A DNA stretch of 64,000 nucleotides from Amoebophrya sp. A120. Lineage: Eukaryota; Protista; Dinoflagellata. A program made the translations under genes and the position numbers. Positions within the stretch are counted from its first letter, which is position 1. Each line of letters begins with the position of its first letter. Location: contig CAJINV010000008.1 in NCBI GenBank assembly GCA_905178155.1, positions 1,798,001-1,862,000 on the forward strand, written 5' to 3'. Shown one piece after another: positions 12,317-58,050 of the stretch. Under the pieces are notes generated by a model. The model saw nothing but the letters and a program-made list of their open reading frames with translations. It did no database searches and was not told the origin of the DNA.

Positions 12317-15300
12317 TCAGTTGTGTGCTGGTACAGAGCCCGTACCGCACTGGTGCATCATCATCGTCCCACTATTCCCGGCGCCCCCCGCGCCGGCCGC
12401 TAGTATCAAAGAGAAAAATCCCCCCTCCCCATATCAAACAGGCACGTTTCCGAAAATTTGCGTTGCTGATTTGAAGTCACAAATAACGCTTGTCTTGCAA
12501 GAGGACAAGGGCAGAAGCTTCCGCCCCATTATGGAAGCGATTTGTCATGCTGTTGGGCCTAAAGGAAAGCCGTTTGCCATGCTGAACAACTAGACCCATA
12601 CGCCCCTATCCAGCCTGGGGATCTGGCCGCAGTGCCTCCTCGCAATACAAACCCGATTTGTGTACACAAATCCAGCATCAGAAATTCCGTTTTGATATGG
12701 GGAGGGGGGATTTTTCCTCTCAATAGCTAGCGACGAGGAGTTGCTGCTGCTGCTCATTCCCGGCGAACTGGTCTATCGTAAGGAAAAACGTCCCCACCCC
12801 AGAGTTGTCATGCAAATGTGCAATGACAGGAAAATTTGTGCTGCACAGCTCCATGAGGGGCATTTCCAATCAGGTTTTGGATTTTGTAATGCTGTAAACA
12901 GGATGAGAAAACGGCTTTCTCATGCGGCTTCCCTTGCCAGCCAGCACTACACCGCAGAGGCAAACTTGTCATGCACAGGTCGCAAAACTTGGAGATTTGT
13001 GTTGCTAGATTCCCAACTTGACTATGGGGTGGGGACGTTTTTGCTTCGGATATGGTCAGATTCGTTGTTACCGTGCGGAAGTAACCATGTGACTGCAGCT
13101 CGCTCATCGCTGGACGCTTGTGCGGATTGTACTGAAAGATTTGCTGCTGTTATCCAATAAAAGAAGCGGAGTGTATAGTCTGTGTTTGTGTTGGTTGAAC
13201 ACACAGAGGACTGTTACTTATTGACAATTGCCATTTTCATCTTGAGTGCACCTCGCTACGTCCAATAGGAGACTTCTGCACGAATCGCACCGCAACGCGC
13301 TCACTCTGCTCGCACTCTGTATCTTCACTGGCGCTGTCAGTGTAGGACTGTCGCAAACTTCTAACACCCTCTTTTTTCTTGAATAGCAGGAGATCATAAA
13401 GCAGCGGTAAATCCTCAGGAGCGACCGCAGGGGTATTCGGGCGCGCGTTGTGCAAGTGAAATCGTGAGTCAAGCTGATTGTAGTACTACTGGGTTGTAAC
13501 CGATTCTTGATTCGAATCTAAATCTACCAAGCAACAGAAATAAGGAAACAATTTTCTTTTGCGCATGACAAGTGCGCGTACCTGAGAAGATACCAACGCT
13601 AGCACACCCCACACTAAACCATGGAGCAATCGAAATGACTCACAAGACAAACAAAGTTGATGTCCTCAGCATGCAGAGCTTCAATAGACCCGATACCACA
13701 CTGTACTTGACCCGAATAGGAATCTGCCATGCATACGCGCTAAGCCATTCTTCCACCGGTTTCGCGACGAATTTTGGATACTCCGGTGAGAAATAGGGCA
13801 ACTGCGTCACACCGGTCCACTCGCAAAAGGCTGGAGAACCTGCGGCACGGTAAAAGTTGTATGGTTCAATCGAAGAACTTCGGCTTTCATCAGAATGAAT
13901 GCTGCTCGTTCAGAACGTTCCACCTCATGCATCGCTCTGCGTCGTGATCAGGGATGACCACGACCACGACGCGTCAAAGGCGACATTTCTACAGTGGAGC
14001 ATGCACCATGAACCTCAATACAGCCTCGTAGGTATGCTAGTAATACACTACGCGTGCAGCTATGGATGTAGCAATGAAAAATCGGAAAAAGTATCCTGTA
14101 CCGATGACACGGAAAATCTGGAAAATCGTGCCAATCTCACTGTCCCCCACGAACACCGGTGCCCCGTCGTTGGCGAGCTCCCCAAACACGCAGCCGAAGG
14201 ACCAGAGATCGATGCTGACCGTGTACTTTTTTTCGCCAAGCAAAATCTCGGGTGCACGGTACCACAGCGTCACCACCTCGTGCGTGTAGTTGCGGACCGG
14301 CGCCTGGGTCGTGTGCAAATTGATTTCTTATAAGACAGCGACTCATCACTTACTGATAGACCAAAATAACGGCTTGGAACAAGTAGAGCACGCACTTGAT
14401 AGCAGCATGATCCTAAGCCGCTGTACCGAAAAAGCGCGAGCAAGGCCGAAATCGGCGATCTTGACGTTCTGCATGTCCCAACTGATCAGGACGTTCTGCG
14501 GCTTGATGTCCCGATGAATGCGGCTATGGAAAGGAAATATCGCACAGTCTTAGACATATTATTCAGGAGAGACGTAATTGACGCCCATCTTCAGGTACCA
14601 AGATTTTTGGCGCCGCATATGTACATGGTTGGAGCTCTTCGACTACATCTGCGACGGCGGGTAACAAGGAAGGAATAAACGTAGTCATAGCATGATAATC
14701 TTTAAGACGCCGTCGATATCACGAGCTGAAGAGAATTATCACTCGAAGCAGTTGATAGATTCCCGATGCGTCCCGTAGCGAAAAACTCGTACGAAATTCC
14801 TCTCTGATACATGCGGTGCTTGTGGAGGTGCGCCAGCCCTATGCGTTGTAGTGGTTGTTCTTGCTTTGTTCTTGTTAGCGATCAGGGTAGCAAAACATAC
14901 TAGTACATAATCTAAAAAGTGCAGACATTGAGGGTGACTGATTTTCATGCCGCGAACACCTGCTTATCGCTTTCACTTTTTTTTCTCGGGTTGTAATAGA
15001 TACCGTCGAGCATCATTTTCCCAACTCGTTTCAGTGGTTCCCCGCACATTTTCGGCGCCGACTGACTCTTCATGAACTGCCTCAGGTCCGCATCCATGAA
15101 CTCAAAAACCAAGTGCAAAAAACCCCCGTTGCTTTTCACGTCGGAATGCACGTCCTTGAGCTTGATGATGTTCTCGTGGTTGGCAACCTCGTGCAGAAAA
15201 CACACCTCCCGCAGCGCTGTGGACGGGATTCCCTCGTCATCTTCTGACGAGAATGCAATACCTGACATCAAGAACGCATGGTGTTCTGCTTCTGTTTGTG

Positions 15301-15939
15301 CTACGACCCGTCGGAGAATAAACTTTCGTGATGCCCGAACATCATAGAAAAAATGTTTATGTTGTTGTGGAAGATATTGACACTCGTGCTGGGAATCACA
15401 TCAGAGCTCTGGAACTGTGTCTCTTGCGTAAGCATGCAAAAGAAATGTAAAAAAGTAAAAAAGCACGAGGCTGTAGATACGTTTCAGCGCGACGAATTCC
15501 TTTGTCTGCAAATCTTGTGCCTTGTACACGGTTCCGAAGGTGCCTTCGCCGAGCTTGTCGAGCCGCTGGTAGAAGCTTTCCAGCGCATCTATCCTGCGCA
15601 AAAACGTCCCCACCCCAGAGGTGTAATGCAAATCTGCTTGCCAAAAAAGTTTGCCATGCGGGGCGCCATGAGAGGCATTTTCTACTCGTGTTTTGAGATT
15701 TATGATGCTATAATCCGCATGATATACTAGATCTGTGCTGCTGCTGAACTACCTAAACAGGATCACACTACGAGGACAAACTTGTCATGCCAAACGAGCA
15801 AAGCTGGCTGATTTGTCTAGCAGATTTCCCATCTTGATTCTGCTGTGGGGACGTTTTTGCAAATGATAGCATCCGCCCCATAGTTTAGCGACAACTGGTC
15901 GCCCCCGCCCTCGAACAAGGTTCCCACCGCCCGCGCCAT
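12317..15939 (-). CDS. Cyclin-dependent kinase (cdc2-related), multi-exon
   Basis: [93 protein letters not shown]. The ATG at 15939 and stop at 12317 are obtained after removing three inserted elements. Confidence 0.92.
12404..12725. mobile_element. Introner-like TIR element, family D (322 bp); interior partly similar to family C
   Basis: About 35-bp TIR TAT....GAAAAATCCCCCCTCCCCATATCAAA. TSD GCTAG at 12399-12403 and 12726-12730. Removal gives SSSLA|AGAGG...HN*. Confidence 0.88.
12774..13052. mobile_element. Introner-like TIR element, family A (279 bp)
   Basis: TIR TATC......AAAAACGTCCCCACCCCA. TSD TGGTC at 12769-12773 and 13053-13057. Removal gives TTNLTS|SPGM. Opposite orientation to the copies at 18629 and 48418. 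Confidence 0.92.
15590..15868. mobile_element. Introner-like TIR element, family A (279 bp)
   Basis: TSD GCATC at 15585-15589 and 15869-15873. Removal gives MARAVG...NYGADA|[17 protein letters not shown]. Confidence 0.93.
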
Positions 15940-17081
15940 TCACGATCCTCTATTCTATTAGTGCATCATCAGGCAAGCCTGCTTTGGTTTGGCAAAAGCC
16001 TCGTCATTCTTGTTGCGGATCAGACTTTTGTTTTCTGTCATTTCGTTCTGATCTGACACTCAACTTCTGCCTCTCCAGCCGGCATTCTCCGAAGTAGAAC
16101 ACTCTTCGTGCACTCAGCCTCAGGCAGCCCCACCTGTTGCCCTCTTTGCACGAGCTCCAGTTTCAACGCAATTGCAAATAGCTTCATACTTATAAGGAAG
16201 CAGCTACTGAAGAACAATCAATGCCTACGCAGCATTGCCGAACAAGAAGAGATGAACGCGTGGTGGCCCTGCTACTTATAATGCGCGCTCACAAAGAGAA
16301 AGACGCATGCCGCGCAGTTTTCTCGGTGCCAAGCAGAGAGACAGGCGACAACGAGCTGTGCTTATGATTTCTCGCGAAACATATTTTTTGTCTGAATTCT
16401 AGATGTTCAAGATCCACGTCAAGAACTGACAGAGTTCTGTGGGCGGTTTTTATTGTCCTTTATTCTCTAGTGGGGACGATAGCTCTCGGTAACAAAGGGG
16501 CATTGGCGTGGGTTCGCCTGGATCGATTTGAGCGCACCGTGGACATTCCTTCCTCAGTAACAAGAACGAAGTTCACAAGGCATGTAGGAACTAAAAAAGG
16601 AGTTCCAGAGGGAGAATACACAGAGACGAAGCAAATGTGCAGTTCAGGTGAAGTCGGTGGAGAGTGGGAGCTGCTTGTGCTAGTGTAAAAAAGCCGTGGT
16701 AAAAACTAAAACTTTGCATTGCCGTATATTCCGCTGATAACCCTATTGCCAACAAAGCTCGACACTCGTGATGCAGGTGTCTTAGTCTTGATCGACTCGT
16801 AAATTCGAAACTAGATAGACGAAATGTCTTTTACTGAGAGAAAAAAGAATTGCAGACTGATGCCATTACACCGGTTCTGCAGCTGGGATGAGACTGCAAT
16901 TCCTTTTCCGAGAAGAGTGAGGCCGTAGAAAGCGAAGCAGACACGACTGCACCTAGGCAAAAAGAGGACTACAAGAACAGCACCAGTAGCTGCCCCGCAC
17001 GCGCGGAACAATGAATCCGAAGGCCTTCTAAGAAGCACAATAGCGGAACGAAATCGACGAAAACGATCGATCGCACGATTT

Positions 17082-20000
17082 TTACAGCCCCCCGCTGTTG
17101 GAGTACCGCGAGTTGTCGACCTTTCTCTCGTCGTCCGGGTGCAGCTCCGCGTTTGGCTCCTGCACCAAGTGGTCCGGCATGGGGGCCGGCGGCAGTTCGA
17201 ACCGCACCGCCGCAAACTGGTCCTGCTTCGGCACCTTTGCGTCCCAGGCCTTCTTGACGGTGTACTTCTCGCGCTCGTACTTGACCGCCATTTTCCCGAA
17301 CTGGAACACGCGGGAAAACTCGGCGAACAGACTCTTCTTCGTCTGATGCTGCTTGCGCCTCTTCTTCTTTTCCCGCCGCTCCTTCGCCCGCTGCTCCGCG
17401 TCCGAGTTCCGGAGGTCGGCAATCACCTCCTTGCCCGGCTCCGGCCGCCCGCTCTGGTTCACGATCTCCTTCTGCCCCGGCGGCCGCGGCCGGTTCTGCC
17501 GCGGCATGAACATGAGCTTGCCGCCGTCAAACGTGTGTATCTCCCGCATCTCCCGCCGCAAAGGGTCCTCCTCGATCGGCGTAATCTTGTTTCCATAGTC
17601 CCGGTTGCCGTCCTTGTACGTGAAAAAAGTCTCGTGCTCCTCGACCATCGCGCGCGACGGCAGCGCGAACCTGTCATTTTGTACAAGGTTTAAATTTAAT
17701 ATGCTGGCGAAATTGATCATACTGTGAGTGTGACGGCTTTCTATTATTTTTCCAACTTCATGTAACAAGAAGTTGCTTGGTAAAGCTGCACGGTGCTCTT
17801 GCGGATCGCGAATGCCACACGGACTAATGATGGGGAATAGAAGCGCACCACTCCTGCGGATTTGAGAGCAGTTCGCCGAATTGTCATTAAATGATACTAG
17901 CAGTAAACTGAAGTGGATGAGGAGCGTCCTTCTGGTGGTGGTGTGAACAAGTAAGTACTATTAAAAGCCCGCTATCATGTTTGTTTGCAATTCGAAACTA
18001 GGGAGGAACAGAGCCGCAAAAACAAAAAATTAATCAGAAAACCTGGCCAAGTCGCTGGGGTCCACGGTTGGTCGGGGGTTCCAGAACCTCGGGCGGAATT
18101 CCAGGTCGAAGCGTATTCTGCCCTGCTGGCTCATGCGCAGCGGGCGGTCGAACTCGAACACGCCCGGCTGCCACAAAGACTCGCGCAGGGTGCGGAAACT
18201 TAAAAAGATGACGCCGAGCGGGATGTGCCGCTTAGGCACGGCCGGCATGGCCACGTTCTGGTAGCCCCGCTTGCGCATGACCTCGTGAAAGTTCTTCAGA
18301 CTGAGCCACACGGAGTCTTCCATGGTGCGGACCGGAATCGGCTTCGCGAAATCCGCCTTGAACATGGCCCGGTCGGCCTCCAGTTGCGAGGAGAAGGCCT
18401 GCAAGTAGTCCTCCGTTTCCTCCGTCGCGGCTGGCCCGCCGGCGCCGCCGATCCCGCCGGCCGCACTGCTGGCGTTCAACGGATTCGAAGCGCCGCGCGG
18501 CCCGTTTTCGTCCTCCACCTCGATACCGCCCACGTCCACGGCCGCAGCCGTGTCGATCCCGATCTCCTTCTCCGCCGGCCGCATGGCCTCCTTCATGTGG
18601 TCCAGCTGCGAAGTGTCCTGGGTGCCCATATCCTGAGTTAATCCGTACCCACACCAGAGTCAGGATGGGGATTTTGCAACACAAGCCTAGGAGTTTTGTG
18701 AGTCATGCATGACAAGTTGCACTCTGCAGTGTAGTGCAGATTAGCAAGTGCAGCCGCGTCACAGATTCGCCTGCTCATCCTGTTCACAGCATCACAAATT
18801 CCAAAACACGATTGGAAACGGCTCTCATGGGGATGCGCGTTACAAGTCTTCCTGTCTTTGCAAGTCTGCATTACAACTCTGGTGTGGGGACGTTTTTACT
18901 CAGGATAGCCCAGAAAGTGGATACTCAGAAAGGAAAACTGGGTCAGCTTCTTCAACTGAAACGAAAACGTCTCGTTCCACACCGGATTCGGGTTCCCCAG
19001 ACAACAACTACTCGATGGGTCCATAGGAAAAGTCGTTACCGGCTCAAGTCAGATGACTATGACATATTATACGTGTTTATAGTTGATTTCGTTCTAACTT
19101 CTTGTATCGATTTTTTCCGTGTCATAAGAAACCACATGCAGATCCCATGTTGATATCAATACCTGAAAGGTGACTTGACTTCTAGAGAACTAACTTTTTC
19201 CAAAGGATATATGCAGATCTCGCTGTTTTCGTCAGGGTTGGCGGCAAACTGCAAGTAGGCGTTATGAAATGCAAAAGTGTCTGGGTCTGGAAGAATGCAA
19301 CTTGTCATGCTGATTTTGGATTCTAAAAAAATCTGTATTGCATGAGCAGCAGAGAGGTTCCAAGTTTTGCTACACGGAGAGAGCATTTGTCATGCGGTAT
19401 AGGCATCAGGAAGCCCTCACAAAATCAGTGATGCTAGGGCATGCATCACAGACATCAGGAGTCATGCAAAATGTGCATGACAAACCTGGCAATCTTCCAG
19501 ACCCAGACATTTTTACATTTGATAGGCGTAAGTGTTCAACGATGCGCTGTCCACCCCGGGGCACGCAAGATGCCTTCCATGCAGCAGAGACAGGATGATG
19601 CTACCTGAAGTGGGATTGAGTTTTCTTTTGCGAACGATCGTTTCTTGACCTGGATCAAGTTCTCCTATCTATGTATGGTTGTACTCGCGTCAATCACTGG
19701 CGAAGGAAAACGACATCGGCAAAGAGAAGATCCATTCGTCAGTGGACGCTACGGATACTTCCTTCGCTGCTGCGAACAAAGCAAAGAAAAGCCTCTCAAG
19801 AAAAGCACGACAGTGGTGCAGGGCCAGAGAAGCAAGTAAGTAGAGAAATACCGTCTGCATCGACGCCATTCAGCAGTTGTTTCGACGTGAGTCCGCGGGT
19901 CAGATCATGATCCCGCATTCCGTCGCAGATAATGTCGACCAGCGCTCGAAAGTTTCCGTCCTCCACGTCCATTTCGATCAATTGCGCGTGCGCCCCCTCT

Positions 20001-23000
20001 CGCGCCAGGTCGTAGGCTGTCTGCCCCGAAGCCGTCTTCCGGTTTAGGTCTGCCCCCATGTCGATTAGCAGCTGTGCCGCGTCGTTGCAACCCACCCGGT
20101 ATGAAAGCGAAAGGAAGTTTCTGTCAAGGTTGGAAGTTCGACGAGCGCACTCGGCTTGCTGGTCGTCGGGCCTCTCATTGCTCAAAAGACACGGCGTTAC
20201 CGGTAAATTGTGTTTTGCTTTTGGAATTGGATTTCACACAATTCACTGTAAGTACACAATCACATGTTTTTGCCTTCTGCATCTTCGAAACATGCCAAAA
20301 AGACTCCATTGTCGTGCCGAACTCCCTAGACTGACATCATCAAATCCTCCTTCAATCCCATACGTGCGTCGCCAGGTGCATGGGCGTCCACCCTGCGGCG
20401 TCCACTTCGTTCAGGTTTGCCTTGCAGTCCAGCAACGTGGCCACGCAGGCCGTTTCTCCCTCGTGGCAGGCCCAGTGCAGCGCCGTGTACTCATCCTTGT
20501 CCTTCATGTTCAAACTAGCGCCCGCGAGCACCAGTCCCGGGATCAACGACCAGTTTCCGTCGCGCGCCGCGATCATCGCAGCCGTGGTCCCGTCGTTGGT
20601 TTGCGCGTTCACGTCGATCGATTCGAAGGCCAGGTGCTTGTTGGGCGTGCCAAATATCAAATGCAAAAATGTCTGGGTCTGGAAGAGTGCAAACTTGTCA
20701 TGCACATTTTCGATGCCCCATGAGGTCTGCAATGCAGGACCTAGCATGACAGGTTCTGCGAAGACTCTATGATGTCTATCCTGCATGACAAACTGCCGCT
20801 AAACTTGTTTAAACGTGGACAGCTTTTGGTAATCACGCAACACAATTTTTTGTACTATCCAGACTTAGCATGACAAGTTCCATCCTTCCAGACCCAGACA
20901 TTTTTGCAATGCATACCAAACAGGCTGGTGCAATCCTTGTTGACTAAAAGCAGGTTCACCAAATCCAAGTTTCGTCCGGAGCAGGCGTGGTGCAGCATGT
21001 TCTTCCCATTGCGGTCGACCGCACTCGCGTCGGCAACCACTCGGGTATCAAGGTGGAAATGCTTTTCGTTCTCTTCTCCCCGGACGGGTTCGTTCTTGTC
21101 CGATAACATGCATGACTTTGCGGCATTACGGTTATTGATTAAGTATTCTTTCACTTTTTTCCTGTTGTAGTGCAGCTGCATGTTGTCAGTCAAGGACATA
21201 TAAGAAGCTGCAACGCTTGCTTGTGCAGCCGCGTGTTGCAAAAAACCGGCGCGTGCTGGCTGCGACCACCAAATAGCAGATGAAAATGATATGCATAATC
21301 GACTTAACATTCACCCCCTCCTGCGGAGAAACAACACCATCAGTTTTCAACATTGCATACGGGTTGCGGCGATCGAGCAGTAGCAGTACGCAGTTCATGT
21401 TGCCGCGGCTGCAGGCAAGCAGCAGTGGCGTTTCTTCCTGCACGTTGCGGAAATCGACGGTCATTTCCGACAACCGCCGGGCAGCGTCCGAAGACTGGCC
21501 CAGCGCCGCTTCCTCGCGCTCCTTCAGCTGCCGCTCCAGCTCCAGCTCGGCCTTACTCTTGCGCATCCGCCGCTCGTTCTTCTTGCGCACAAAGTCGTGG
21601 AACTTCACCGTCTTGATGGGCTCTACCTTCGTCCCGTAGGCCGACCGCAGCTCCGCCTGCGCGGTGGCCCGCTGCTCCTCCAGCATCTTCTTCCGGGCCG
21701 CCACCTCCTCATCCGCCTCCTCGATCACGTAGGCCACCGAGTCCGTGAAGATGAACTCCAGCAGGTGCCGCAAGATCTGCCCGTTTCCCTCCTGGCAGGC
21801 CAGGTGCAGCGACGTGTTGTCGTTGCAGTCACCCTGCGTCACGTTCGGCAAAATCCGGGTCAGCAGCTCCACCTCCGCGAAACTACCCATCGTCACGGCG
21901 TGGCGCCTATCCCCTGCAAAAGTAACGCACAATTCGTGAAAATTCATATTCAAATTTTTGCAATACAAGTTATCATACTGCATGGCATATACAAGTTGCA
22001 ACTATTCCAGATCCAGCATGATCGAACTGCACCATCAGAATTACTGCACGAGTGCGGGACTTTTGCAAAAATGCGTAGTGCAGCGCGCACATGCCCTGCG
22101 GGTCCTTCCATCCCGTGACGTTTTTAATCTCGTCGCCGAAACCCAGCAGCACCTCGCCGAGCTCCTTGAGCAGCTGCGTCTGCACGGCGTAAATGAAGAT
22201 GTTCCATCCCCGCCCGTCCACCACATCCAGCTCGGGATGCTCCTCCAAAATCTGCCGCACGATCTTCCCGTTCCTGGTGTCCATCGCAAACATCAGGGGT
22301 GACCGCCCCTGCGGGTATCCCAGAAAAAAACTGCATCGGCACTACGACCTCAGCTTGTGTTACATACTGTTGCGGGAGGAAAATGCGAAAATCAAACGGA
22401 GGAGAAGAACCTTCATCAGGCACATGAAGCTTCATCTCCTCATTTGGAATTTTCGTACATCATGATCAGCATCTTAGTCCCGCTTCCGCCCGATCGATGC
22501 AAAGTCTGGTGGTGCAAGTGCGTTAGCATTCGCTGAAGATGCTACAACAATGCAAAGACAGGAGGGCGCTTGATGTAGCAGTGATACAGCTTTTTCGTCT
22601 CATAGCGAGTCGTACACGTTTACAGACGCGCTCATCCGAATCAGCATGTTAGCCATTTGCTCGTGCCCTGGAGTTGTCCAAGTGAAATCTTGAAGCAGAT
22701 GAGAACTTCGCTTCCAACGAGCATGCAGGACGACCGAAAAAAGAAAAACCTAGAAACGTTACGTTTCCTACTGTGGACCTCCCCACACATCATATGCAAG
22801 TCCAGACATTCCGTTTGCAAATGTAAATCTCCAACGAGTGTCGAAATTTTGCCCTTCCCGTCTGCCTCAAGATTTCACACACGTACAGTCGACGACCACG
22901 TGAAGCGGAAAGGTGAAAAAGGCGTCGTGCACCTCCACCTTCGCCCCGGCGCACAGCAGCATCGCCAGCGACTGCGTTTGTCCGTTCTTGCAGGCGGCAA

Positions 23001-24850: not shown

Positions 24851-25314
24851 TCTGCTTTTTTCTATACTCGGTCAGGTCATCTCCGTCTCACTTTGCAAAA
24901 CAAACCACTCCATCCTGATCTTAGCACTTTCTTTCACGCATAGACGCCAAAGACCAGGGCCTGCTGTTACTGCGTTAATTGGTTTACGTGCAGAGAAAAA
25001 ACTCATGGTCTCAACTAGTAGCCCAAGAAAAAGTGCAAGCCGTAGCTTCTTCTTCTGCGTCGAACCCGGCAAGCTCCGCTATGCAAGAGAAAACCGCAAA
25101 ACGAGGGCAATAATTTCGCAGAAAAATTCTTTTTAGATATTAACTTGCTAACAAACACAATGAAAATTTGCAACGAACTGCAGCAATAGAAGTATCTATA
25201 ACTCCTATTGCTGAGCTGCGCGAGTTAAAACTTTGCGACGGGGAGGAAAATCGCCCACGCCGGAAATTTTTTGACAATTTTGAAACTTTCCAAAGCTGTC
25301 GCGATTTGCGAAAT

Positions 25315-25750
25315 CGCCCACCGCCCAACGGCCAACGGCAACCGGCCAAATCGCAAACGGCCAACCGCCAACCGCCAACGGCCAAATCGCAAACGGCCAA
25401 ATCGCAAACGGCCAACGGCCAGCGGCCGAATCGCAAACGGCCAACGGCCAAATCGCAAACGGCCAACGGCCAAATCGCAAACGGCCAACGGCCAAATCGC
25501 AAACGGCCAACGGCCAAATCGCAAACGGCCAACGGCCAAATCGCAAACGGCCAACGGCCAAATCGCAAACGGCCAACGGCCAAATCGCAAACGGCCACCG
25601 GCCAGCGGCCACCGGCCAAATCGCAAACGGCCAACCGCCAACCGCCAACGGCCAAATCGCAAACGGCCAAATCGCAAACGGCCAACGGCCAGCGGCCGAA
25701 TCGCAAACGGCCAACGGCCAAATCGCAAACGGCCAACGGCCAGCGGCCAT
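25315..25750. repeat. Minisatellite built from GGCCAAC (7 bp) and GGCCAAATCGCAAAC (15 bp) subunits, modal unit 22 bp
   Basis: Directly visible tandem array. A higher-order block starting near 25342 recurs near 25612. Confidence 0.95.
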
Positions 25751-25754
25751 TTTG

Positions 25755-26050
25755 CAGCTCGGAATATTTTCAAGCTCGAAATATTTCCCAGCTCGGAATA
25801 TTTCCCAGCTCGAGATATTTTCCAGCTCGAAATATTTTCCAGCTCGAAATATTTTCCAGCTCAAAATATTTTCCGGCTCGAAATATTTTCCGGGTCGAAA
25901 TATTTCCCGGGTCGCAATATTTTCCGGCTCGAAATATTTTCCGGGTCGAAATATTTCCCGGGTCGAAATATTTTCCGGGTCGAAATATTTTCCGGGCCGA
26001 AATATCTTCCGGGTCGAAATATTTCCCAGCTCGAAATATTTTCCAGCTCC
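25755..26050. repeat. 17-bp minisatellite GCTCGAAATATTTTCCA / GGTCGAAATATTTTCCG (about 17 copies)
   Basis: GCTCG recurs at 25808, 25825 and 25842 (period 17). Each unit contains the palindrome AAATATTT. Confidence 0.95.
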
Positions 26051-26243
26051 AAGGTATTTTGCGACGCAAAATATTTTGCAGGGTCGCTCGGATCTGCGCG
26101 ATCGCGTGGCGCTTCCTTAATGAAATTTCTAAGGAAAAAAAAACTGCAGCCCAGCTGGAGAGCAACGCGATCAGGCGGCCGAAGACCGAAGGCGGCGATC
26201 GCATCCCTGCAAGCTGTGCGTGGATTGTCGCCTGTCCTACTGC

Positions 26244-26817: not shown

Positions 26818-26839
26818 CCGAAAAGCCCCGACGTCCCCC

Positions 26840-40700: not shown

Positions 40701-41260
40701 AACGCCATAAATCGTATTTCGGAAAATGCAAATCGTATTCGCGCTCAGACTGTCGCGTCTTTTATTCCGTGCAGGAAAGCGAAGACATGCTCTCTTTTGA
40801 ACTATCCCATAAGGGTACCATAGTAGTATCACTTACTCTCAGCTATCTCTGTGGTAAGACAGATTTATTTCCAGTTCATAAGGTACCACCTCCGCGGTTC
40901 CTGCGTCGAAGTTGTGGAGCACTGAAACGCCGTAGAGTATCGACAAAAAGCAGCAGCACGCGATGAAAAAATCCCGCCGCGTGTGTGGTGGGTCTAAGGC
41001 GAAGTAGAGAGAGAAAGACGCCTGCGCACACAGGAGAAAGACCAACAAGGATGTGTCGAATCGAAAATTTTCGCTACCAGAGTACTTATGTGCCTGATCT
41101 TGGACGCCACGAAAAACCTTACGCTCTTTCGGATGCTCGAGAGTTTGAGTTCGTCCACGGAAGTGCTATGCGCTCGCGCAATACAGCTGTTTCATTCTTC
41201 AGCATACATTCATTACTGCAACGTGAAGTTGTAGACAACTATGGTGCTCTGCTAGCGCCT

Positions 41261-41704
41261 TTATCCTATCCCATAGGTTTCGAGGATGAAGAGCAGTGAG
41301 ACGAAAATCTCAATAAGCTCTTCCACCAGCAGCTCTTTCCAGGCGGTCTGGGGGCCAAAGAAGAAATTTCGGTGGTGTTGGAGGTAATGCAGCAAATCGC
41401 GGATCCAAAAAATACCACTCGAGTGCGCGTCTCGGCCGTCCGGATCATTCGGGTTGGTTGATGGGGGAAAAGACTGCGGAAAAAATATAACCAGCTTTGC
41501 GCCATGCCACGCGAAAATCGCGAAACAGAACAGTAGAAAGACGAAACAGTACTTCAGGTAACAGTGGTGACTGCGGCCCCGCTTCAGCTTCGACCGCTTT
41601 TGTGAAAATGAAAAGCCAAGGGTTACTTCCTCCGGACCGAAACAAACATAGTACTCAAAGCCAGGGAGTCGGGCCTCCCGGGAATCGTTTTTTTCTCGGC
41701 ACAA
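41261..41704 (-). CDS. Hypothetical membrane protein exon
   Basis: 147-aa ORF with a hydrophobic segment YCFVFLLFCFAIFAW. Confidence 0.25.
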   Translation of the reverse strand: MCREKNDSREARLPGFEYYVCFGPEEVTLGFSFSQKRSKLKRGRSHHCYLKYCFVFLLFCFAIFAWHGAKLVIFFPQSFPPSTNPNDPDGRDAHSSGIFWIRDLLHYLQHHRNFFFGPQTAWKELLVEELIEIFVSLLFILETYGIG

Positions 41705-43327
41705 ATCGTGTCCGAGTGCGGTATGGGCTGATCGAGCTGATCGAAGTCAAGTGTACAAGAAGTGCTTTTGTCGGTCAGCTTTTACTGCAAGATGCAAACC
41801 TTGTCATAGACAACTGGTGATAGTGTAATCGGCCAACTACACTTTGAGCATTTATTGGGTCGGTTTCTGTTGCCGTTGGTGCGGAAAGAATAAGTAAACA
41901 CTTTTCTGTGATCATAGCCCCAATGCTCGCACAAGCAGCTGCTCCTGTTCCGAGTTCAGTTGCAGCGAGGCCGATGAAGATGCAGCTGCACTAGACGTAA
42001 AGAGGGACGAGTTCTGTGATGCTTCAGGCGTGCCTCGCTCGCTCATATTCGTGACGGTCGCCATGATGAAGTTCTTTTGCTAGTACAGTTTTAGCTTAGA
42101 AGTGGAAGTACGACATTCCCTTCGGTGCGATGTAGCTGAGCCCTTCTACGCATGAAATCTCAACGACCTCGCCCACGATTTCAAGAAAAAAACTACCTCT
42201 AGAACATACCACCTCACTTGTTAGAGTCGACAGAGCCCAGAACGACATTCAACCGGCTCTTCGTGAGGAGTCGTGGGAAGTGAAGGCCAAGGCTTCTACT
42301 CTACTTATCGTACAACTTCGATAATCAGCTTCTGGTAGACAAAGGCAAATCATACTTCTTTCTTACGGAGAAGTGAACGCGTAGCATTTTCGCACAGGGC
42401 CGGGTCCACGGGGGTGTTAGTTTCTTACACACGATAAATCAACCAAAAGATAAAAAAAAGCGGTACAAAGCTAGGGTTCGTCATAGGTGGGTAGCCTCTA
42501 AGTCGGGTGCGGGATGGGTGGGGAGGAGAAGAATCTTGGGAAAGACAGGCACAGGCACTGCGATCGAAATAAGAAAGGCGAGTTGCACCTGTGTGAAAAA
42601 ATATACAAACTGAGGCAACCATGGTACAGTAAGCCACCCTAGGCGAAAGTACAAATCAGAACTCGACAACACAAAATATCCGCGCTCGCAAGTGAATGCC
42701 AGTGAGTACCGATCAAGGATGCACTCCCAATGAGGTCTGGTGATCACGACATCTGTTTCACGCACTGTCCTGTGTCAACCGAACGGTGCGAGCTCCCATA
42801 TTATGGCGGGACAACTTCAAAAAGCGAGTTACCTCCAGTTCCACCCTAGGCCTTTTCACTGCCGCACACCTGAACTCTCAAATTTTCGACCTCGATATGA
42901 AGATAAGTCTAGCGGCAACAGGGGGATCGATCAGTCTAAGCGCTTTTTTCGCCTGTTATCTATGTCAAGATGCACCGATGAGAGTCCTCGACGTGTCCCA
43001 TGCGGTCACCGTGTCCTAATATTTGTTCGACCGACCTGCAGTCGATCTTTCTAGCGGCTGATCATCCGGAATTCTTTCTAAAACATGAACACCTGCAACG
43101 CAAGAATGAAATGAAGCCGGCTCGTCATGGAATGTCGTGAACGAGTCCTCTTCGAACGAAATCGACAAATTCCGAAGCCGCTCCTCCTGTTTCACTTATT
43201 TCACTTGTGCTTTTCCTTTTAAAACCAGTTCTACTAATGAAACTCATCACACTCCACTTCACTCGTGTTAACTACAGAAACGCTTTCTTCGAGAACTTCT
43301 ACCCCTTGTATCAGTTCGAGAATCCTA

Positions 43328-46300
43328 TCAGCAGAAACAGCAGCATTTACGACAGCACATTGCCCTGCTGCTCCCCTGTCCGCCGCCTGCACTCCCACTC
43401 CGAGTCTGCTTGTACGTCGTTAAAGTTTTGCACTTTTTGTTCGGCGCACTTGCTTTAGAATTTACTTCTTTCTCGGCACTTCTCCTCCCAGGGCGTTTCT
43501 TCCCACTGTCGCTGTTTCCTGCGTTCATCCCAAGGGCGACAAGAGCGTCGTTCGACGGTGCCACCACATCCGCCTCATTCAGCATGTTAAAGACGAAACA
43601 GCTGTTGGGGCACTGTTGCACGGCCTGCAAGATCTCCGCGTAGCCGTCTTGAGTCTCTTGAGGGAAAATCTTGAGTATGTCGTGCCGCCTGTACAAGCAT
43701 CTTGCTCGCGAGTGCGATTGCAATTCTGAAATCGATCCGAATCAATAAACCGAAATATCAACTACAAAAACATGTTTCGTGCGATCATTGGCTGCGATAA
43801 ACGAAACGCGGCGCGACATACATCCCTTTTTCACCACTTCGATAAAATTTCGTGACTCCCGATCTGCACATACGTTTCGACAACTTCGGCCTCGAATCGC
43901 GTTAGAATTTTCAAAAAGAGCGTTTCTAGTGAATCATACAGCGACAGCGCCTCCCCGGACGCCTCAAACGCGTCCACTAGTCGCTGCCGTTCCTGAATCC
44001 AAGCTGGGGCAAAAAAACGCGTGAACGGATTCTTTTGCTGCTGCCGGGACGCTGTTGCTGATGGACTGTTCATGTTCTTCATCATCCCACCTTGTCCCCG
44101 CGATGGAGTAGCTACCTGCGACTCCTGCTGCTGCAGGAGAGTGTTGTCGACGCTGAAGCTCAGCCGACCCAAGCGGTGCGTATCGCCGACGGACACTGAC
44201 TTCGTCAAAAAGCTGTGGTAGCGCACGTGCACCTTCTTCACGGTCTCCGGGTTGCCGGCGAAGTCCAGCAAAACCGCGCCTTGTTGCGTGGGGGGCAACT
44301 TGTGCAAAAACCGGTAGTCGTCGTACAGGAGAACCTCGGAACTCACGGCGTTGGGTCGGGTTTTTCCCTTTGGCTTTGGGAAATTCGCCTTGAGGAATCG
44401 CTCCACGAAGCGGTAGTTCGCGCCCGAAGTTTCGTATGAACAGGAGGAGCGGAAAAGACACACAAGAGCTTGACGAGGTAGGTGTCGCATCAGCATCATG
44501 GGAAATGATCTCTTGGAATGTTGCGCTGAGAAGTTGCCTACCTACGATTCTACCTATAGTCAACTCTGACTCTCCAAGCCTGGATAGAGCTACGGAACTA
44601 TCGACGACGCGATGTCCGATTTTTGTATAGCACAACTCTTGCGTCATTTTTTGTCTCCGTATCATACTACTGCAATGATTTTCAGTGGGCGCACCTGACC
44701 GGCGCCTCCGCCACGTGTGCCGCCGCCGAATAGAGGACGCCGAGCTTCTAACGGTAGCGAGGCTGTGAAGTAGCGGTGGGTTTCTTCAGTATGGTGGTAG
44801 TCCTGGTGCACGACCAAGTTTATTGTTGAAAGGTCAATTGCAGCTGCAAAGATGAATTCAAAAACATACAAAAGAAGTACCTTCCCGCTTCCTCTGTTCC
44901 TGCAATACCATGAGAAAGCAGAGTGCTGACTTGCAGCTTGCGCTCGTGATGACCAGCGTGTCCGCGTCGAAAAAGTCGTGCCAGCGCAGCCAGTCCTCGA
45001 GGAAGAAAGCCGTCGGGAACAAGGGCTGCAGCAGCATCAACAAGTCCTCCGTCGCCCGCGAGTACAGGTTCGGCCATGTCCCGGGATCGCACACCCGGTA
45101 CGACCGGTAAACTAGTGGCAAAACGTGCCGGCGCGACGGATGCTCGTCAATAACCAACTCCGAGCCCCGCTTGAAAGTGAGCCCTGCAGTCGACTTCCGG
45201 TTGTGGTAAAGAGGACCACCAAACGCTGCACTTCGGCGAGAAGCGACAGAACCCTGGTCGTGGGCATTCGTCGTGTGCTGGTGGAAGGGGTTCTCGTGCA
45301 CAGCTCTTGACATGACCGTGCTGGGCGATTGCATCGAATTTGCCACTGCAATCCGCCCGCTGGGACTACTGTTCTTCAGCATAGTCTCCCCGTGCTGTAA
45401 CAGCTGCTCCTGTTGCAGCATGAAAAAGTACTGCCTGCGCCACGAGGAGCCCGGAGACTGCTGCTGGTCGGCACCCGGATCGAGTTCCAACAAGGTCCGC
45501 TGCCGACCATTCAGATATTCAGTGCGAACATTCCAGATTGATACGTAGGCCACAGCGCCACGCTTTTTGGCCACAGTGGCTCGGTAACATAGTATTTAAA
45601 ACCCTACGTGATCATGAACAACGACGGGGACGGCGATTGCGATTCGCGTTCGCGCTTGCATGACATTCATTCCGTATTTGGAGACCCTGCTGCGCAGGAA
45701 TATCTAAAACTTCCGCACCGGATATTGTTTGCGCATGATCTTGGTAATGCCCAACCGGCACGATTGCCGAGGGTTGGTGTGGCTGGTGCTTGCCTCGTAC
45801 GCCATTCCCTCCTGTGGACGGCGACAAGGGAAAGTTGTGACGGTTCTCGGCAAATACAAGCTCAGGAACGACAACCAGGCTTGAGTATGAACGGAAGTAA
45901 AAAAGTTTGCCACAGGGCAGGGGACGGGGTCCTCGTGACTGTTGGTTTACGGGCTTCACTCTTTCTTCGAATCCTGTACTACTTGTACTTGGTGGAGCCG
46001 CGCCCATCTAGGATACAAAACTCGCGCCGCTGTGGTCGAGGTTGAATTCTTTCTATGTGTCCTGTAAGCAGGAGCGATCCGTACACACATCGGGAAGAAA
46101 GAGGGAGATGTCCCGCCCTGAGACAGTGCAACTACATTATTTCTACTTGATACAGACCGACTCCGCTTCATCGCCACATTGTCCGCCAACTCTTCCGGCT
46201 CTAATTCAATGGTAAACATGTCTGTACTTGTCATGTGTATCAGCAATTTGGCAGCGCAAGCGACCTGAGGACAAACCCCTTTCCACGCATGACACTTCGC

Positions 46301-46899
46301 GTTTCTTGAGAGACGGAGAATGCAAACGAAAATGTTTTGGTGCGCAAGAAGTAGTTCTTCTGCCCTGCCAGCAGACGTTACTGCAAGCGTATTTTCATCT
46401 TCTCTGGTATTTACATCTGATTCGACGTGCGACGAGAAGTCCTAAGACATATTTGCTCTCATTCATACTGCAGCACGAGAAACGACGAAGTGGGCCACAT
46501 CCCGAAGAGCCTCGTACCCCGCCGCAAAAAGGGACTTCGCGATGCCACCACGGTCGCAAAGCCCCACACTGGCAAGCGCCCAAAGTGCAGTGCCAGCTGC
46601 TGCTCCACTTGCTCTACTTCCGAGGTCATGTGTGTGTCAGTAGAAGACGCCGAACAGTAAGCACCGGTTGACGAAGATGTTGAGGAGCTGGAAGCCCCAC
46701 CACAGGATGTCTTTCCCCTTCCGCGCGGGAAAAAGTCCCAAAACTGCATTTTGTCGCCGAGAACGGCGTAGCTCAGGTTGTTGGCCGACAACGCAAATTT
46801 CTCCACCTGCGCCAGCGCCTGCCCGTCCTGCAGCAGCACATCCTCGCTGGTGACGAAGCGGGTCTGCGTTATATCCGATCGCTGGATCAAGAGATCCAT
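43328..46899 (-). CDS. DUF2855 family protein, multi-exon, with long low-complexity insertions
   Basis: VEKFALSANNLSYAVLGDKMQFWDFFP, GRLPVWGFATVVAS, LLQPLFPTAFFLEDW..FFDADTLVITSASCKSA, LLDFAGN, SVGDTH and FFAPAWI match the DUF2855 pattern as I recall it. Confidence 0.78.
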
Positions 46900-47846
46900 G
46901 ATCGTGGCAGAAAACCTCGTTCGAGACCTGCACTATCACGGGACAGCACTCGGTGGCCGCTTTTGCAGCGACACTGTTTGTACTATTTGAGGTACTCTTC
47001 TAAACGCTGTGGTACGAGTGGTTGCTCAACTCTCATTCTCTCTGCATATGGCCTCAGATCAGAGTATCTGGCGTCAGCTTGTGGTGCAATTAGCAGTGTA
47101 ACCTCGACGACTCAGCCACATTTTTCTCGGAACGTAACAAGTACTTGGTCTTCACGTTGAATACGTCTCGATCTCACTTTTGTCCTGCCGTTTTGATGTT
47201 CTGTGATCGATGATCTTTACTCTCGCTCGCGGAACACGAACATTTCAAGGGCACTTCTTCTGTTCTCGTGTAGCAGAACGAGCAACATGTGCCCTTCGAG
47301 TGCTGCCGGATTCATCTTCAGTATCAGTAACTTGGAATTCATGGTGACACTTGCAAAGAAAACCCACCGCCGATGTAGCACTAGCTACTTTTACTTGTTG
47401 CTTACGCCAAATCATAAACCAGGAAGCTTTTGACAGTGTCATTTAAACACAGTTCACTAAACCCAACCACCTGCTGTCATCAAAATGAGTACATCAAAGG
47501 AAAAAAACGTGTGTGTGTGAACCAAAATATCGCTTTTGCTTTTGAGTAAAGATACTTTTGTTGTCCTGATGGCCTTCAACTGAATGCCAACGTTATCCTT
47601 ATTTTTGTTCATTCTGCAAAAAAACTCAGAAAGATAAATTCTCATCCCGCTCCCAATTAGCCCCGAACAACCACTCCGATATATCAAACCACTCCACGAC
47701 ATGGGCGGCGCAAACGACCTTTTTCATCGGAAAGCCGATGACAAAAAATCGGCTCCAGCTCTTCATTTTGACAACACAGAAAGAGAAAAGACCTCAAGTA
47801 GCTACACAGTCGTCGACTCCAGCACAGGGATCCTCTGAATTCCTCG

Positions 47847-50800
47847 TCACGCTGCCGCGCTGATCTTGGAAAGGATTTCCCGGGTTTCGCTCTTCAGGTT
47901 TTCTGTCGCAAGCATTTCCGTAATGGTTTTCTGCACCTTCGTTGCAAACTCTTCGGTGATCTTGGTCTTGCACTCAAACGCCCGCGAGAGTCGTGCGGCG
48001 ACCTGCCCGTTGCCGTAGTTGTCCAGCGCGAGGATCTGTTTCTTCACAAAATCCCTACCTTGATCGCTGTGGAAGAGCTTGATGTTTCGAATCGCCGAGC
48101 CGACCACTGACCGAAATCGGTTCGGATTGGAAACGGTAAACTCCGGGTGCTTCGTCAAAGCCGCAACCTGGGGAATGGCATAGGTTGTTCAATCACAATC
48201 TGAATCTTCGTTTTTCAACTGCATCAAACATTTCAGTTTATTTTTCCAGTCACTTCACTAAGCAGGTCCAAGTGGAGGTGGAGGTGCCCAACAAGAATAA
48301 ACAGAGACATTATGCAATAACTGCCCGTGCTTAAGCATGCAATTGGCGTACCTGATCAAAATTGCTTGAGAACGCCGCCTGCAAGGCGAACCACTTGTCC
48401 ATCACTGGACCGGAGCCTATCCTGAGTAAAAACGTACCCACACCAGAGTCAGGATGAGGATTTTGCAACACAAACCTAGGAGCTTTGTGAGTCACGCATG
48501 ACAAGTTTCAGTCCGTAAGGTAGTGCAACTTAGCAAGGAAAGCCGCATCACAAATCGACCTGCTGATCCTGTTCACAGCATCACAAATTCCAAAACACGA
48601 TTGAAAATGCCTGTCATGGGGATGCGCATTACAAGTCTTCCTGTCTTTGCAAATCTGCATGACAACTCTGGTGTGGGTACGTTTTTACTCAGGATAGAGC
48701 CGGATTTTTTCGCAAACTCGAAGAAGTCCGCCTGTGCCTTGGCCTGTTTGTTCTGCTCCACCAGGACCCGGAAGGCGGCAACGCGCTCCGTCATGGTCTG
48801 CGCAGCGAAGTACTGCTTCTCCGCCAGCTCTGGGTCTTGCAAAAGACCAAGCAGCGCGTTCTTCAGCAATCGGCTTCCGATCGCCTCCTGGGAAAGCGAG
48901 AAGCCGCTTGTCGTTGTGGCCTTCAGCGTGGCTTGATACCTGGTAGGGAGCAGAGGTTTTATTGCAAAATCCAATGAAAGAATCATGAATATAGGAACGC
49001 GAATTTTCTTCGCTTTGTTACTCTGCTAGGTAAGTAAGTACTTACTTCGCATTCGCAAGATTTTTCTTTCCATGTGGCCGCTCTGTGGTGCAGTAGACAA
49101 AAATGCATAGAAGATGCACTACCACTGCAAGTGCTCGTGTTGCGATACAAAAACATTCCGAGAAGTACAAGCTGTACAGAATGGATGCTGCCAAGTGCAA
49201 CTTACAGCTATTCGAGATCAAGAATCAAGTATTTCTGCATTATACCTTTGCTTAATCTCCTTTCCCAATTTCTGCACGATCTTTTCCCGCACCAGCTCGA
49301 CGCTTTTGTCCAGCAGGATTGGATATGAAATGCAAAAGTGTCTGGGTCTGGAAGATTCTGAGAGTTGGCATGCACGTTTAGCATGAGCCGTGATGTTTGT
49401 GATGCAGGCCCTAGCATGACAGATTTTCTGAGGACTTCTTGATGCCTATCCTGCATGAGAAATGTCCTCTCCACGTGGCAAAAACCTGACTCCTATTGCT
49501 TGTCATGCAACACATCTTTTTTTAGAATCCAAAAATAGCATCACAAGTTGCATCCTTCGAGACCCAGACATATTTGCAATGCATATCGGATCCACCTTCG
49601 ACCCGTAGCCCACCATGAGTCCGCTCACATCCGGCAATGCCAGTGTCTTCCCGAGCGCCAGCGCGGAAGAGGATTTGTCGTCCAGCAAAAATTTTATCGA
49701 CTGGAGCAGGTAGTCAAGTTTCTCCGTGACGCTGCTTTTGTTTTTCTCGTCCAGATAGGCTGCCTTCCCCTGGCTGTTCTCGTACACGTCGTAGATGACT
49801 TTGGTGCAGAGTGCGTCGAACGCGTTGTACTTGCAGTACATGTCCGTGTCGAACGCCGCCAGGGAGGACAACTCCTTCACCGTGTAATCGTAGTAGAGCT
49901 TGATGGGCGCGCCGAAACCACGATTCAAAGACGGCACCACATCATCAAACTCAACGCCGGGGGGGAGCTGTGTGTTAGTGCTTGATATGCACACTCTTGC
50001 TTTAAGATTAAGGTCTTTTTTCGCTACTTATCGTGCCGGAACTTCCAACCATGAATGAATCTCCACCGGAAAAGACGTGCCAAGAAGCCGATAAAGAAAC
50101 AAAAAGAATAAGATCAAATATCCTAAACCCTAAGACCCTCAAAACCCTATCGACGCTGGTGTCGGACAGGGGCGGAAACAGGACGTAGATCGTAGGGAAG
50201 AAGATGTGGCGGAGGGGCGTAGGACGGCCTGATCAGAGAAAGCGCGCAAAACGCATGTTCTGAACCTAAAAATACTATGTGAATATACCCAACCCGAAAA
50301 AGATAATACGACACCGGAAGGTGTCGCGCCCCAATCCCAAAAAATTACTGCTTGGTGCCAGTAGGGCCCAGGGAAAAACAAAAGGCAAACAAGAGGAAGG
50401 CAAGGTAAAATCTACTTTCAAAAAGCGCTAGTAAGCCTTGTGCTCTGATCCGTCCGGGCGTGCACTCCCATCTGGTTCTAAAGCTTCAGCAGTGCTGAGA
50501 GCGCTCCGACCCTAAACCTCAAGGCAAGCCAAGAGATCTACGTACGTATGCGCACGAGCAAGGCAGGAATATTGCCTGATGTGGGCGAATATTCCTAACT
50601 AAAATCAAAAACGACACTCGTACCGGAGGTACACCTCAACGGAATCGATACGAGCTACAAATCGAAAAAGAATAAGAAAGACTGTGTTCCAACACGGCAT
50701 AATAAGTCATAAGTACCTCAACGACCACCGAGCCGGTTTTGTCCGTGAGGTGAAACACCTCCAAGTTCGCGTCCCCGGCGGGGTAGATCTGCTTGCCCGT

Positions 50801-57551: not shown

Positions 57552-58050
57552 CTTGTTCCCTGTGGCTCCAGCTCTTCTACTTTGTGTACTAGTGAGCGGC
57601 CCAACGTTCGTCACCGATCTTCTCGGGCGGAAGCAAATGCGGTTTAAGTTCAGATCCTTTACTCTCTCGGAGAAGTGCATATTTCTGTCTGAATTGATCT
57701 TCAACCATCCAGATGCTCTTGGGTCAGCGCATGGCCATCCCAGGAGCGCCAGTTGTACAAGCATCCCTGTATACCACAGCCAGCGAGAAATCCTCTTTCG
57801 TTTTACTTACTTAAGTACTTCGGTCAGCATCCACACGAAGAAGAACAACGAAAGCGCCAAAAACAAGCACTATTAGAATCAACAGCCACACGTCAACTAC
57901 CTGGAAACGGGGCAACGCTCCAGGTTCGTGGTCGAACTAAGCTCCATTCTCAAAGCTAGTTTCCTTGTTTTCGGAATGTAACTGTGTTCTCAAGGATAAG
58001 AAAATTGCAGCTGCTGCTCCTGGTATTCAATAAAACGGCATAACATATGC

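Follow-up and report, generated by a model that had tools for sequence, protein, structure and literature searches.

Elements that lie within genes of Amoebophrya sp. A120 in either orientation are absent from transcript-like contigs, and a single lopsided register, beginning 1 nt before the terminal TAT and ending 4 nt after the terminal ATA (1/4), fits all 15 spliced non-canonical introns in the window, by which we mean the whole stretch of 64,000 nucleotides that was analyzed. The data support removal that is independent of both the orientation and the internal sequence of the element. This fixed, lopsided offset of the cut likely arises because a relaxed spliceosome takes the element ends for splice signals. 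The elements are introners already published from the same host organism, Amoebophrya sp. A120; they have TAT...ATA ends and 5-bp direct repeats. The introner system is already known, and it is the fixed splicing rule that is newly testable.

Excerpts of the earlier report on A120 (Farhat et al. 2021; PMC7789003) give about 66,000 introns, more than 60% of them non-canonical, whose mode of removal was left open there. They list U2, U4, U5, U6, and nearly all spliceosomal proteins, with U1 undetected. The introners are described as having inverted repeats of TAT, seven variable bases, and at least AAA, together with 3-5 nt direct repeats, non-canonical ends, co-oriented genes, and a hairpin model. 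Because that model is already present there, the hairpin idea in the original prediction for this DNA is not new.

The assertion that all host genes lie on the minus strand is borne out by several types of evidence. Pfam matches were obtained for 16 of the 40 minus-strand open reading frames (ORFs) tested in the window and for 0 of the 25 on the plus strand. Nine GT-AG introns, read on the minus strand, are spliced out of transcript-like contigs from the window, and the spliced contigs yield minus-strand ORFs of 944, 378, and 349 amino acids. One window ORF is 62% identical to a protein of Amoebophrya A25 (and 100% identical to an A120 protein), and the canonical donors of the window read GTAY in 11 of 12 cases. 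Comparison with viral contigs gave no matches, nor did an Rfam scan at gathering thresholds.

All eight elements named in the original prediction were found in place (Table 1), with TAT...ATA termini and 5-bp flanking direct repeats, except that the right end of B6650 reads GTA instead of ATA. A 5-bp direct repeat flanks 11 of 11 young copies in the window, two of them (6650 and 49324) with one mismatch each, and 125 of 140 repeats in related loci, collected with a finder that demanded 3 of 5 matches, are perfect. The inverted repeats start with TAT, 7 nt, and AAA, in agreement with the description in PMC7789003. These features are best explained by non-autonomous DNA transposons with TAT...ATA ends and a 5-bp target duplication that insert into exons in either direction. 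No clear selection of G5 or AG was seen at target sites (24/77 and 11/77, respectively). For the nine decayed introns, the assignment to elements rests on end motifs and arm complementarity, because only one of the nine matches younger copies by BLAST.

Table 1. Elements and decayed element introns in the window. Registers are given as nucleotides before TAT/after ATA; joints and skipped lengths are from contigs of the samples indicated.
Feature	Position	Strand	Host gene	Orientation	Direct repeat	Removal or ends
Family A element	12774..13052	-	CDK-like kinase	1	GACCA (sense)	Intron 12770-13053 in 1/4 register; joint 12768->13053, 284 nt skipped, X6
Family A element	15590..15868	-	CDK-like kinase (as 12774)	1	GATGC	Joint 15584->15869, 284 nt skipped, X6
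Family A element	18629..18907	-	Ankyrin-repeat	2	TGGGC	Joint 18623->18908, 284 nt skipped, X3 and X6; depth 0 in X1, X7
Family A element	48418..48696	-	Aminopeptidase N	2	GGCTC	Deleting 284 nt restores annotated protein P0001 (basis is protein, not transcript)
Family B element	19263..19524	-	Ankyrin-repeat	Inverted relative to other three B copies	ACGCC	Joint 19255->19523, 267 nt skipped, X3 and X6
Family B element	20655..20915	-	Ankyrin-repeat (same gene and contig as 19263)	Majority	TTTGG	Joint 20649->20916, 266 nt skipped, X3 and X6
Family B element	6650..6915	-	ABC-class ATPase		CACCG/TACCG	Open frame, not a joint among the joints listed
Family B element	49324..49585	-	Aminopeptidase N		TCCGA/TCCAA	Deleting 267 nt restores P0001
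Family D element, 322 nt	12404..12725	-	Kinase		CTAGC	Joint 12398->12726, 327 nt skipped
Family C element	5826..6134	-	ABC-class ATPase			
Family C element	6290..6597	-	ABC-class ATPase			
Decayed intron	8996..9288	-			0/5	Unambiguous, G|TAC...ACA|CTCT; fixes 1/4
Decayed intron	14521..14810	-			2/5	Unambiguous, G|TAT...ATA|GCCG
Decayed intron	19014..19210	-			0/5	Unambiguous, A|TAT...ACC|CATC
Decayed intron	21042..21360	-			2/5	Unambiguous, G|TAT...ATA|CCCG
Decayed intron	9585..9883	-				Registers 1/4 to 4/1
Decayed intron	13147..13386	-				Registers 0/5, 1/4, 2/3
Decayed intron	13445..13736	-				Registers 0/5 to 4/1
Decayed intron	20096..20363	-				Registers -1/6, 0/5, 1/4
Decayed intron	21904..22078	-				Registers 0/5, 1/4

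Orientation was assessed by aligning internal sequence only, with 35 nt cut off each end. By this measure, A12774 and A15590 lie on the same strand (alignment score 64 versus -86) and opposite to A18629 and A48418 (56 to 151 versus -79 to -114), whereas B19263 is opposite to B6650, B20655, and B49324 (191, 98, and 182 versus -64, -52, and -76), precisely the inversions that had been claimed. Wider counts were drawn from 150 loci of one other assembly, none of which overlaps the window outside the elements. In this sample, which is not the whole genome, all four families with at least eight copies occur both ways, and family B is split 32:27 between the strands of the related contigs, with no bias. 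A total of 106 family B copies were collected, including the four of the window, showing that this family is repeated in the genome.

Copies of families A and B in both orientations are missing from transcript-like contigs, and the stretch that is lost equals the element plus the length of one repeat whichever way the element lies. The opposing copies B19263 and B20655 are spliced out within one contig in two samples (X3 and X6), and neither orientation proved to be unspliced or strongly depleted. Joined forms have a depth of 0 in X1 and X7, whose contigs cross element edges, and raw RNA reads over the window number 16 (X9), 4 (X10), and 8 (X11). The frame of the ABC-class ATPase gene is open after deletion of B6650 and the two family C copies, each with one repeat. 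Canonical termini do not account for removal: in the 1/4 register, GT and AG occur together in 0 of 15 spliced elements, which therefore lack U2-type GT (GC)...AG ends, and only 2 of 86 young copies could form GT-AG in any register. No drift of the elements toward G+1 or AG was detected. The original prediction had ascribed removal to strand-symmetric features rather than internal RNA sequence. Orientation and internal sequence are indeed dispensable, but a need for the long stem joining matching repeats is not supported, given that nine decayed introns are still removed. Furthermore, the presence of both orientations is no proof of a stem mechanism, because any motif in a terminal inverted repeat is shown either way.

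No register other than 1/4 is compatible with all 15 joints, and four introns permit it alone. In these four, the direct repeats match at 0-2 of 5 positions and 12-15 of 30 arm positions are complementary; at three of the four unambiguous joints, record lengths reveal no extra letters. The joints of young copies, which can slide, are not placeable within the 5-bp repeat. Instead of being symmetric, as had been implied, the cut is lopsided, with 1 nt taken at the 5′ side but 4 nt at the 3′, such that element ends read N TAY ... AYN NNNN, followed by a variable first exon base. TAY occupies +2 to +4 in 15/15 spliced elements (9/9 decayed) and matches the host GTAY donor. An A at -7 is likewise invariant (15/15), and -7/-6 reads AY in 9/9 decayed introns, in which the mirror positions of the end motifs vary. 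Among A-run positions 11-13, the 3′ arm keeps 25/27 bases and the 5′ arm 17/27 (p=0.019 by a post hoc Fisher test), and the U at -2 of the usual branch motif is found in only 3/9 decayed introns. When decayed elements were sought de novo with a symmetric model of the ends, 6/7 validation calls were exact, but only 6/15 elements were recovered. The 55 'old' candidates of this search, with evident false calls among them, carry A at -7 in 54 cases (mirror 49) and A at +3 in 53 (mirror 48), and this same set shows no G enrichment at +1 or -1.

A terminal inverted repeat stem of 30-55 bp had been proposed. The arms are near-perfect over about 30 bp, with 25-27 of the first 30 positions paired in six young copies, and in A18629 and A48418 they run ungapped for 55-56 nt at 73-82%. 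Whichever way they lie, young copies fold strongly end to end into a stem (z -4 to -11). What is not supported is the need for such a stem to join two matching repeats, since the nine decayed elements are still removed although 10-18 of their 30 arm positions are complementary and their repeats match at 0-4 of 5. A duplex between an intron's own arms is nonetheless kept in 9/9 decayed introns, with a mean of -21.1 kcal/mol, against -13.5 in mismatched arms (p=1e-5) and -10.0 in canonical introns, and it is stronger on the sense strand in 6/9 (p=0.30, not significant). Weak end pairing may therefore be a helper in splicing. Compensatory substitutions between the arms, which had been suggested as a check, were not detected at the RNA level among the 106 family B copies, a set in which the search itself had fixed positions 1-3 and 11-14. 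The observed covariation was reached by 360, 109, 374, and 271 of 1000 shuffles at positions 4, 5, 7, and 15, and by 3/1000 at position 10. Covariation over most of positions 17-30 comes from about eight copies in which the core of both arms is different, and transposase binding at the DNA level explains it equally well. There was also no excess of sense-strand G-U pairs (84 versus 87).

We lean toward a relaxed, U1-less spliceosome that reads the element-end motifs, perhaps helped by weak end pairing. A spliceosome of the U2 type would read short motifs borne on the terminal repeats, with the 5′ arm supplying N-UAY as a copy of +2 to +4 of the host GUAY donor. From the sequence, we infer that the N-TAY end is this GTAY donor with G+1 relaxed. 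The 3′ arm would supply a U-run at -18 to -15, followed by the invariant A at -7 and a pyrimidine, a putative branch point suggested by conservation in nine introns of one window. The 3′ cut would be set 6 nt downstream of A-7 and not at an AG. Pairing of the arms may juxtapose the ends where U1, which is undetected, would otherwise do so; neither matching repeats nor a long, perfect stem would be necessary. Because the repeats are inverted, both motifs are shown in either orientation, and a 1+4 overhang takes out exactly five repeat bases, so that host codons would be restored. More tentatively, and with the chances slightly against it, the A120 spliceosome might dispense with U1, G+1, and the AG acceptor altogether and place both cuts by a ruler from UAY at +2 and the branch A at -7. 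The inverted repeat would then encode splicing in full and in either direction, its 1+4 offset exactly cancelling the 5-bp duplication.

The end duplexes could instead guide a non-spliceosomal, euglenid-like excision, in which a dedicated nuclease and ligase would cut in a staggered fashion, 1 nt ahead of the stem and 4 nt past it. This amounts to the original stem idea freed of the need for matching repeats. The strong stems of young copies in both orientations, the above-background duplex in all nine decayed copies, the dispensability of GT/AG, and the undetected U1 would all be consistent with such a system, as would the fixed lopsided register beside paired motifs in Euglena (excerpts of PMC12501133). 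We consider it the less likely reading, however, because in-register pairing of the terminal three bases has P>0.5 in only 2/9 decayed introns and is near 0 in several. In addition, a terminal pair (of three) is broken in 4/9, in no case to G-U; such changes are uncompensated and unlike between the two arms, a sense-strand G-U bias is absent, and the 5′ motif equals the host spliceosomal donor. The stricter version originally predicted, in which a stem of 30-55 bp brings two identical target-site copies side by side and joining can occur at any point within them, is very improbable. It is compatible with the unplaceable joints of young copies and with splice sites described as variable relative to the hairpin (excerpts of PMC7789003), but not, unless they form a class of their own, with the four poorly matched, poorly complementary introns that all use one register.

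Least probable of all is that the elements are excised from DNA, as are the internal eliminated sequences of ciliates, or that the joints are assembly or reverse-transcription artefacts at direct repeats. Template switching is a recognised artefact where hairpins carry short repeats, X3 and X6 are RNA runs by guess only, none of the runs listed as containing this DNA being recorded as RNA, and the raw RNA reads are uninformative. Yet these contigs also lack the nine GT-AG introns, giving long ORFs, whereas the X1 contigs retain introns and have no joined forms. Exact joints occur even at introns without any repeat, the element-plus-repeat length is not a multiple of three in 16/20 cases, and homologues are colinear across A48418 and B49324.

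With one register and named invariant bases, splice sites that had been called 'variable' come under a testable rule that predicts the branch nucleotide. This rule lets slidable junctions be re-annotated, and it can tell a relaxed spliceosome from a second, Euglena-like splicing system. If it is true, an element could land in any exon sequence, either way round, and leave the protein unchanged. A transposon that is harmless whatever its target sequence or direction would bear on the origin of new introns.

There are both likenesses and differences between these elements and known systems, as represented by excerpts of the cited reports. The introners of PMC7789003 share TAT inverted repeats, direct repeats, and non-canonical ends with the window elements, but their splice sites were called variable, 1-5 nt from the repeat, whereas the window elements fit one register. 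Neither orientation counts nor a fixed register was found in the A120 literature covered, including the text excerpts of PMC7789003; its figures and Roy et al. 2023, Henriet et al. 2019, and Huff et al. 2016 lie outside that scope and may bear on novelty. Among transposons, IS3EU/GingerRoot have matching TA..TA termini, but IS3EU duplications are usually 6 bp rather than the 5 bp seen here; Ginger2 has similar 4-5 bp duplications, and a superfamily assignment is a lead only (PMC10045372). In Polarella glacialis and Aureococcus, introner-like elements are also DNA transposons; they duplicate their target and give rise to introns whichever way round they insert (Roy et al. preprint 10.1101/2020.10.14.339549). 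Those elements carry or recruit GT/GC/GA donors and AG ends and show orientation bias, whereas A120 needs neither dinucleotide and family B is split about 50:50. The non-canonical introns of Fritillaria borealis are derived from MITEs with terminal inverted repeats and target-site duplications and are removed by an adapted U2 spliceosome (PMC11282704; PMC12621601); their ends are mostly AG-AC/AG-AT, in contrast to the free first base and last four bases in A120 (PMC11282704). Euglena nonconventional introns, held to be non-spliceosomal and excised as circles (PMC12501133), likewise have MITE-like inverted repeats, slidable junctions from direct repeats, and a lopsided register known from non-slidable introns (PMC12501133; PMC11282704). 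The Euglena motif N3CDG ... CHG N5-6|R is absent here, where the ends read N TAY ... AYN NNNN, with the stem beginning at +2/-5 and a 5′ motif identical to that of the host donor (PMC12501133).

In the window, inverted ends with flanking direct repeats mark 11 young elements, 261-322 nt long. All start with TAT, end with ATA (GTA in one), and are bordered by 5-bp direct repeats. Internal sequences define families A (four copies), B (four), C (two), and D (one), and individual copies are named here by family letter and window start coordinate. When 35 nt are trimmed off each end, these interiors reproduce exactly the element orientations listed in the original prediction, which held that both occur in minus-strand hosts. 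The host genes encode an ABC-class ATPase, a protein kinase, an ankyrin-repeat protein, and an aminopeptidase N whose ORF is 100% identical to an Amoebophrya sp. A120 protein and 62% identical to an A25 protein. Pfam matches were obtained for 16 of 40 minus-strand ORFs versus none of the 25 plus-strand ORFs tested. The motif GCAT[CGT]AC[AC] is common to the interiors of families A, B, and D and a 211-nt family. With both strands counted, young copies contain it 1.9-3.9 times each and decayed spliced copies 0-1 times, compared with 0.02 times per 270 nt outside; the motif is likely a transposase-binding site common to several families.

Removal was evaluated with contigs of sequencing runs X3 and X6 (presumed RNA, two samples of one study) mapped to 3900-22400 and 16300-22400. 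The joints listed (15 of 34 and 15 of 79 rows) comprise 24 transcript joints and 6 repeat-to-repeat joints from runs X1 and X7. A12774 and A15590 are each skipped by 284 nt in X6, and A18629 (284 nt), B19263 (267 nt), and B20655 (266 nt) are all skipped in one contig each of X3 and X6, so oppositely oriented B copies are removed from one type of molecule. Each skip spans the element plus five bases. These element-skipping contigs also lack nine GT-AG introns, and spliced contigs encode minus-strand ORFs of 944, 378, and 349 aa; X1 contigs retain introns and span element edges, with a depth of 0 for joined forms. The one indication of removal for A48418 and B49324 is the annotated protein, and for B6650 the reading frame.

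Both orientations are also found in related loci. A pattern scan of one assembly (contig prefix JACKZZ01) returned 150 loci representing 140 distinct elements. A codon model, with the window genes as its training set, could assign a host strand to 84 of these. In validation leaving each host gene out, the model at the thresholds used called 16 of 20 window elements, one borderline, all correctly. Family B is divided 32:27 (p=0.60; 95% interval 0.41-0.67), with neither orientation strongly depleted, in keeping with the original prediction; the three smaller families give 4:1, 5:2, and 2:4. Among 86 copies with perfect repeats, only two could have GT-AG ends in any register.

The spliced non-canonical introns among the transcript joints comprise six young copies and nine with decayed repeats and arms (terminal inverted repeats). 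In this window and the contigs of one study, the only register that fits all 15 is lopsided, with the 5' cut lying one base outside TAT and the 3' cut four bases beyond ATA (1/4), and four decayed introns admit this register alone. Joints alone give these four the 5' ends G TAC, G TAT, A TAT, and G TAT and an A-pyrimidine at -7/-6, and thus the register is independent of the chosen element boundary. Extra letters are ruled out by record lengths at three of the four joints, and the kinase frame is kept at the other. In these four introns the direct repeats agree at 0, 2, 0, and 2 of 5 positions, so matching repeats are dispensable for removal.

Sequence that survives decay is strand-asymmetric. 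All nine decayed introns keep T+2 and A+3 in the 5' arm, with T or C at +4, and A-7 in the 3' arm, with T or C at -6. The T-run of the 3' arm is kept in 25/27 versus 17/27 in its 5' mirror (p=0.019, post hoc). The arms of a larger but noisy de novo set are asymmetric in the same direction. A terminal pair is broken in four of nine decayed introns, never by a change to G-U. Canonical host donors are GTAY in 11 of 12 cases, and therefore the element end equals the host donor apart from G+1. No drift toward GT or AG was found, and a U two bases before the putative branch A is present in only three of the nine decayed introns.

We lean slightly toward removal by a relaxed U2-type spliceosome, in which N-UAY at the intron's 5' end would serve as donor, A-7 would be the branch point, and the 3' cut would fall six bases downstream, with arm pairing as a helper at most. 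No branch was observed. The main rival, possible and distinctly less probable, is a Euglena-like excision guided by a stem, with a staggered cut. Introns of Euglena are described as following a fixed, lopsided code next to paired motifs and as thought to be non-spliceosomal (PMC12501133; for diplonemids, PMC12621601). Counting against the spliceosome, along with the unseen branch, the scarcity of the U before it, and the lack of drift toward GT or AG, is the residual own-arm duplex of all nine decayed introns (-15 to -28 kcal/mol), which exceeds that of mismatched arms (-13.5, p=1e-5) and canonical introns (-10.0), is far weaker than in young copies (-41 to -57), and may reflect ancestry or selection. 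Only two of the nine have in-register terminal pairing. Of 30 arm positions, 10-18 are complementary in the nine, against 25-27 in young copies, and folding of the whole intron gives z-scores between -3.9 and +0.8, against -4.3 to -9.7. Low-power tests on young copies found sense-strand mismatches between arms divided about equally between G-U (84) and A-C (87), with no covariation between arms at most variable positions.

A strict model requiring both a stem and matching repeats fits these data poorly and is improbable, and DNA excision or artefact, another poor fit, is hardly credible. The original prediction attributed removal to a 30-55 bp stem juxtaposing two direct repeats. Its observation of both orientations stands and its interpretation is partly right, except that matching repeats are dispensable and orientation symmetry alone does not prove a stem.

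Other features of the window, by coordinate
Coordinates	Feature	Details
7857-10503	spliced ORF	349 aa; six introns; Cys-rich stretch
25140-27160	gene-poor block between minus-strand gene clusters	tandem arrays (22-, 17-, and ~128-nt units); short inverted repeats
48939-49246	GT-AG intron	308 nt or one less; starts G TAT N7 AAAT
49968-50716	GT-AG intron	749 nt; ends with ACTAACACACAG
53623-62795	three long minus-strand ORFs	958, 611, and 867 aa; no Pfam matches; no young elements
57379-57498	family C remnant	one arm and part of element; matching partner arm not found

Judging by sequence, the 48939-49246 intron looks like an old element whose ends have become canonical in the 1/4 register. ACTAACACACAG may correspond to the fused motif for branch and acceptor known from Trichomonas and Giardia, and the Cys-rich stretch may resemble cytochrome c oxidase subunit Vb. 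Across 16300-22400, summed X1 contig depth over family A and B copies exceeds that of their flanks by three to four orders of magnitude, which is not a copy number and accords with very many near-identical arms.

The window elements are the A120 introner elements already published by Farhat et al. (PMC7789003), whose text describes inverted repeats that open with TAT, followed by seven variable bases and three or more A, as well as direct repeats of 3-5 nt and genes in co-oriented blocks. The same text reports that U1 was not detected, offers a hairpin model, describes splice sites as variable (1-5 nt from repeats), and uses "orientation" for genes only. Introners of Polarella and Aureococcus, which use GT/GC/GA donors and AG acceptors, are reported to work both ways (preprint 10.1101/2020.10.14.339549), so orientation symmetry alone is neither new nor implies a stem. 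Among the 22 of 58 rows listed, A120 families differ in the mechanism assigned automatically and have mixed ends (Gozashti et al. 2025, PMC12130899), and the text portions of a 2022 paper (PMC9860276) and two reviews (PMC11282704, PMC11453091) give no register. Among the openly available passages searched, none gives orientation counts or a fixed register for A120. The system is real and previously described, and the contribution is a specific, testable splicing rule that addresses an open problem. Among known transposons, IS3EU/GingerRoot are described as having TA..TA ends like those of the A120 elements, whereas their usual duplication is 6 bp rather than 5 bp (PMC10045372).
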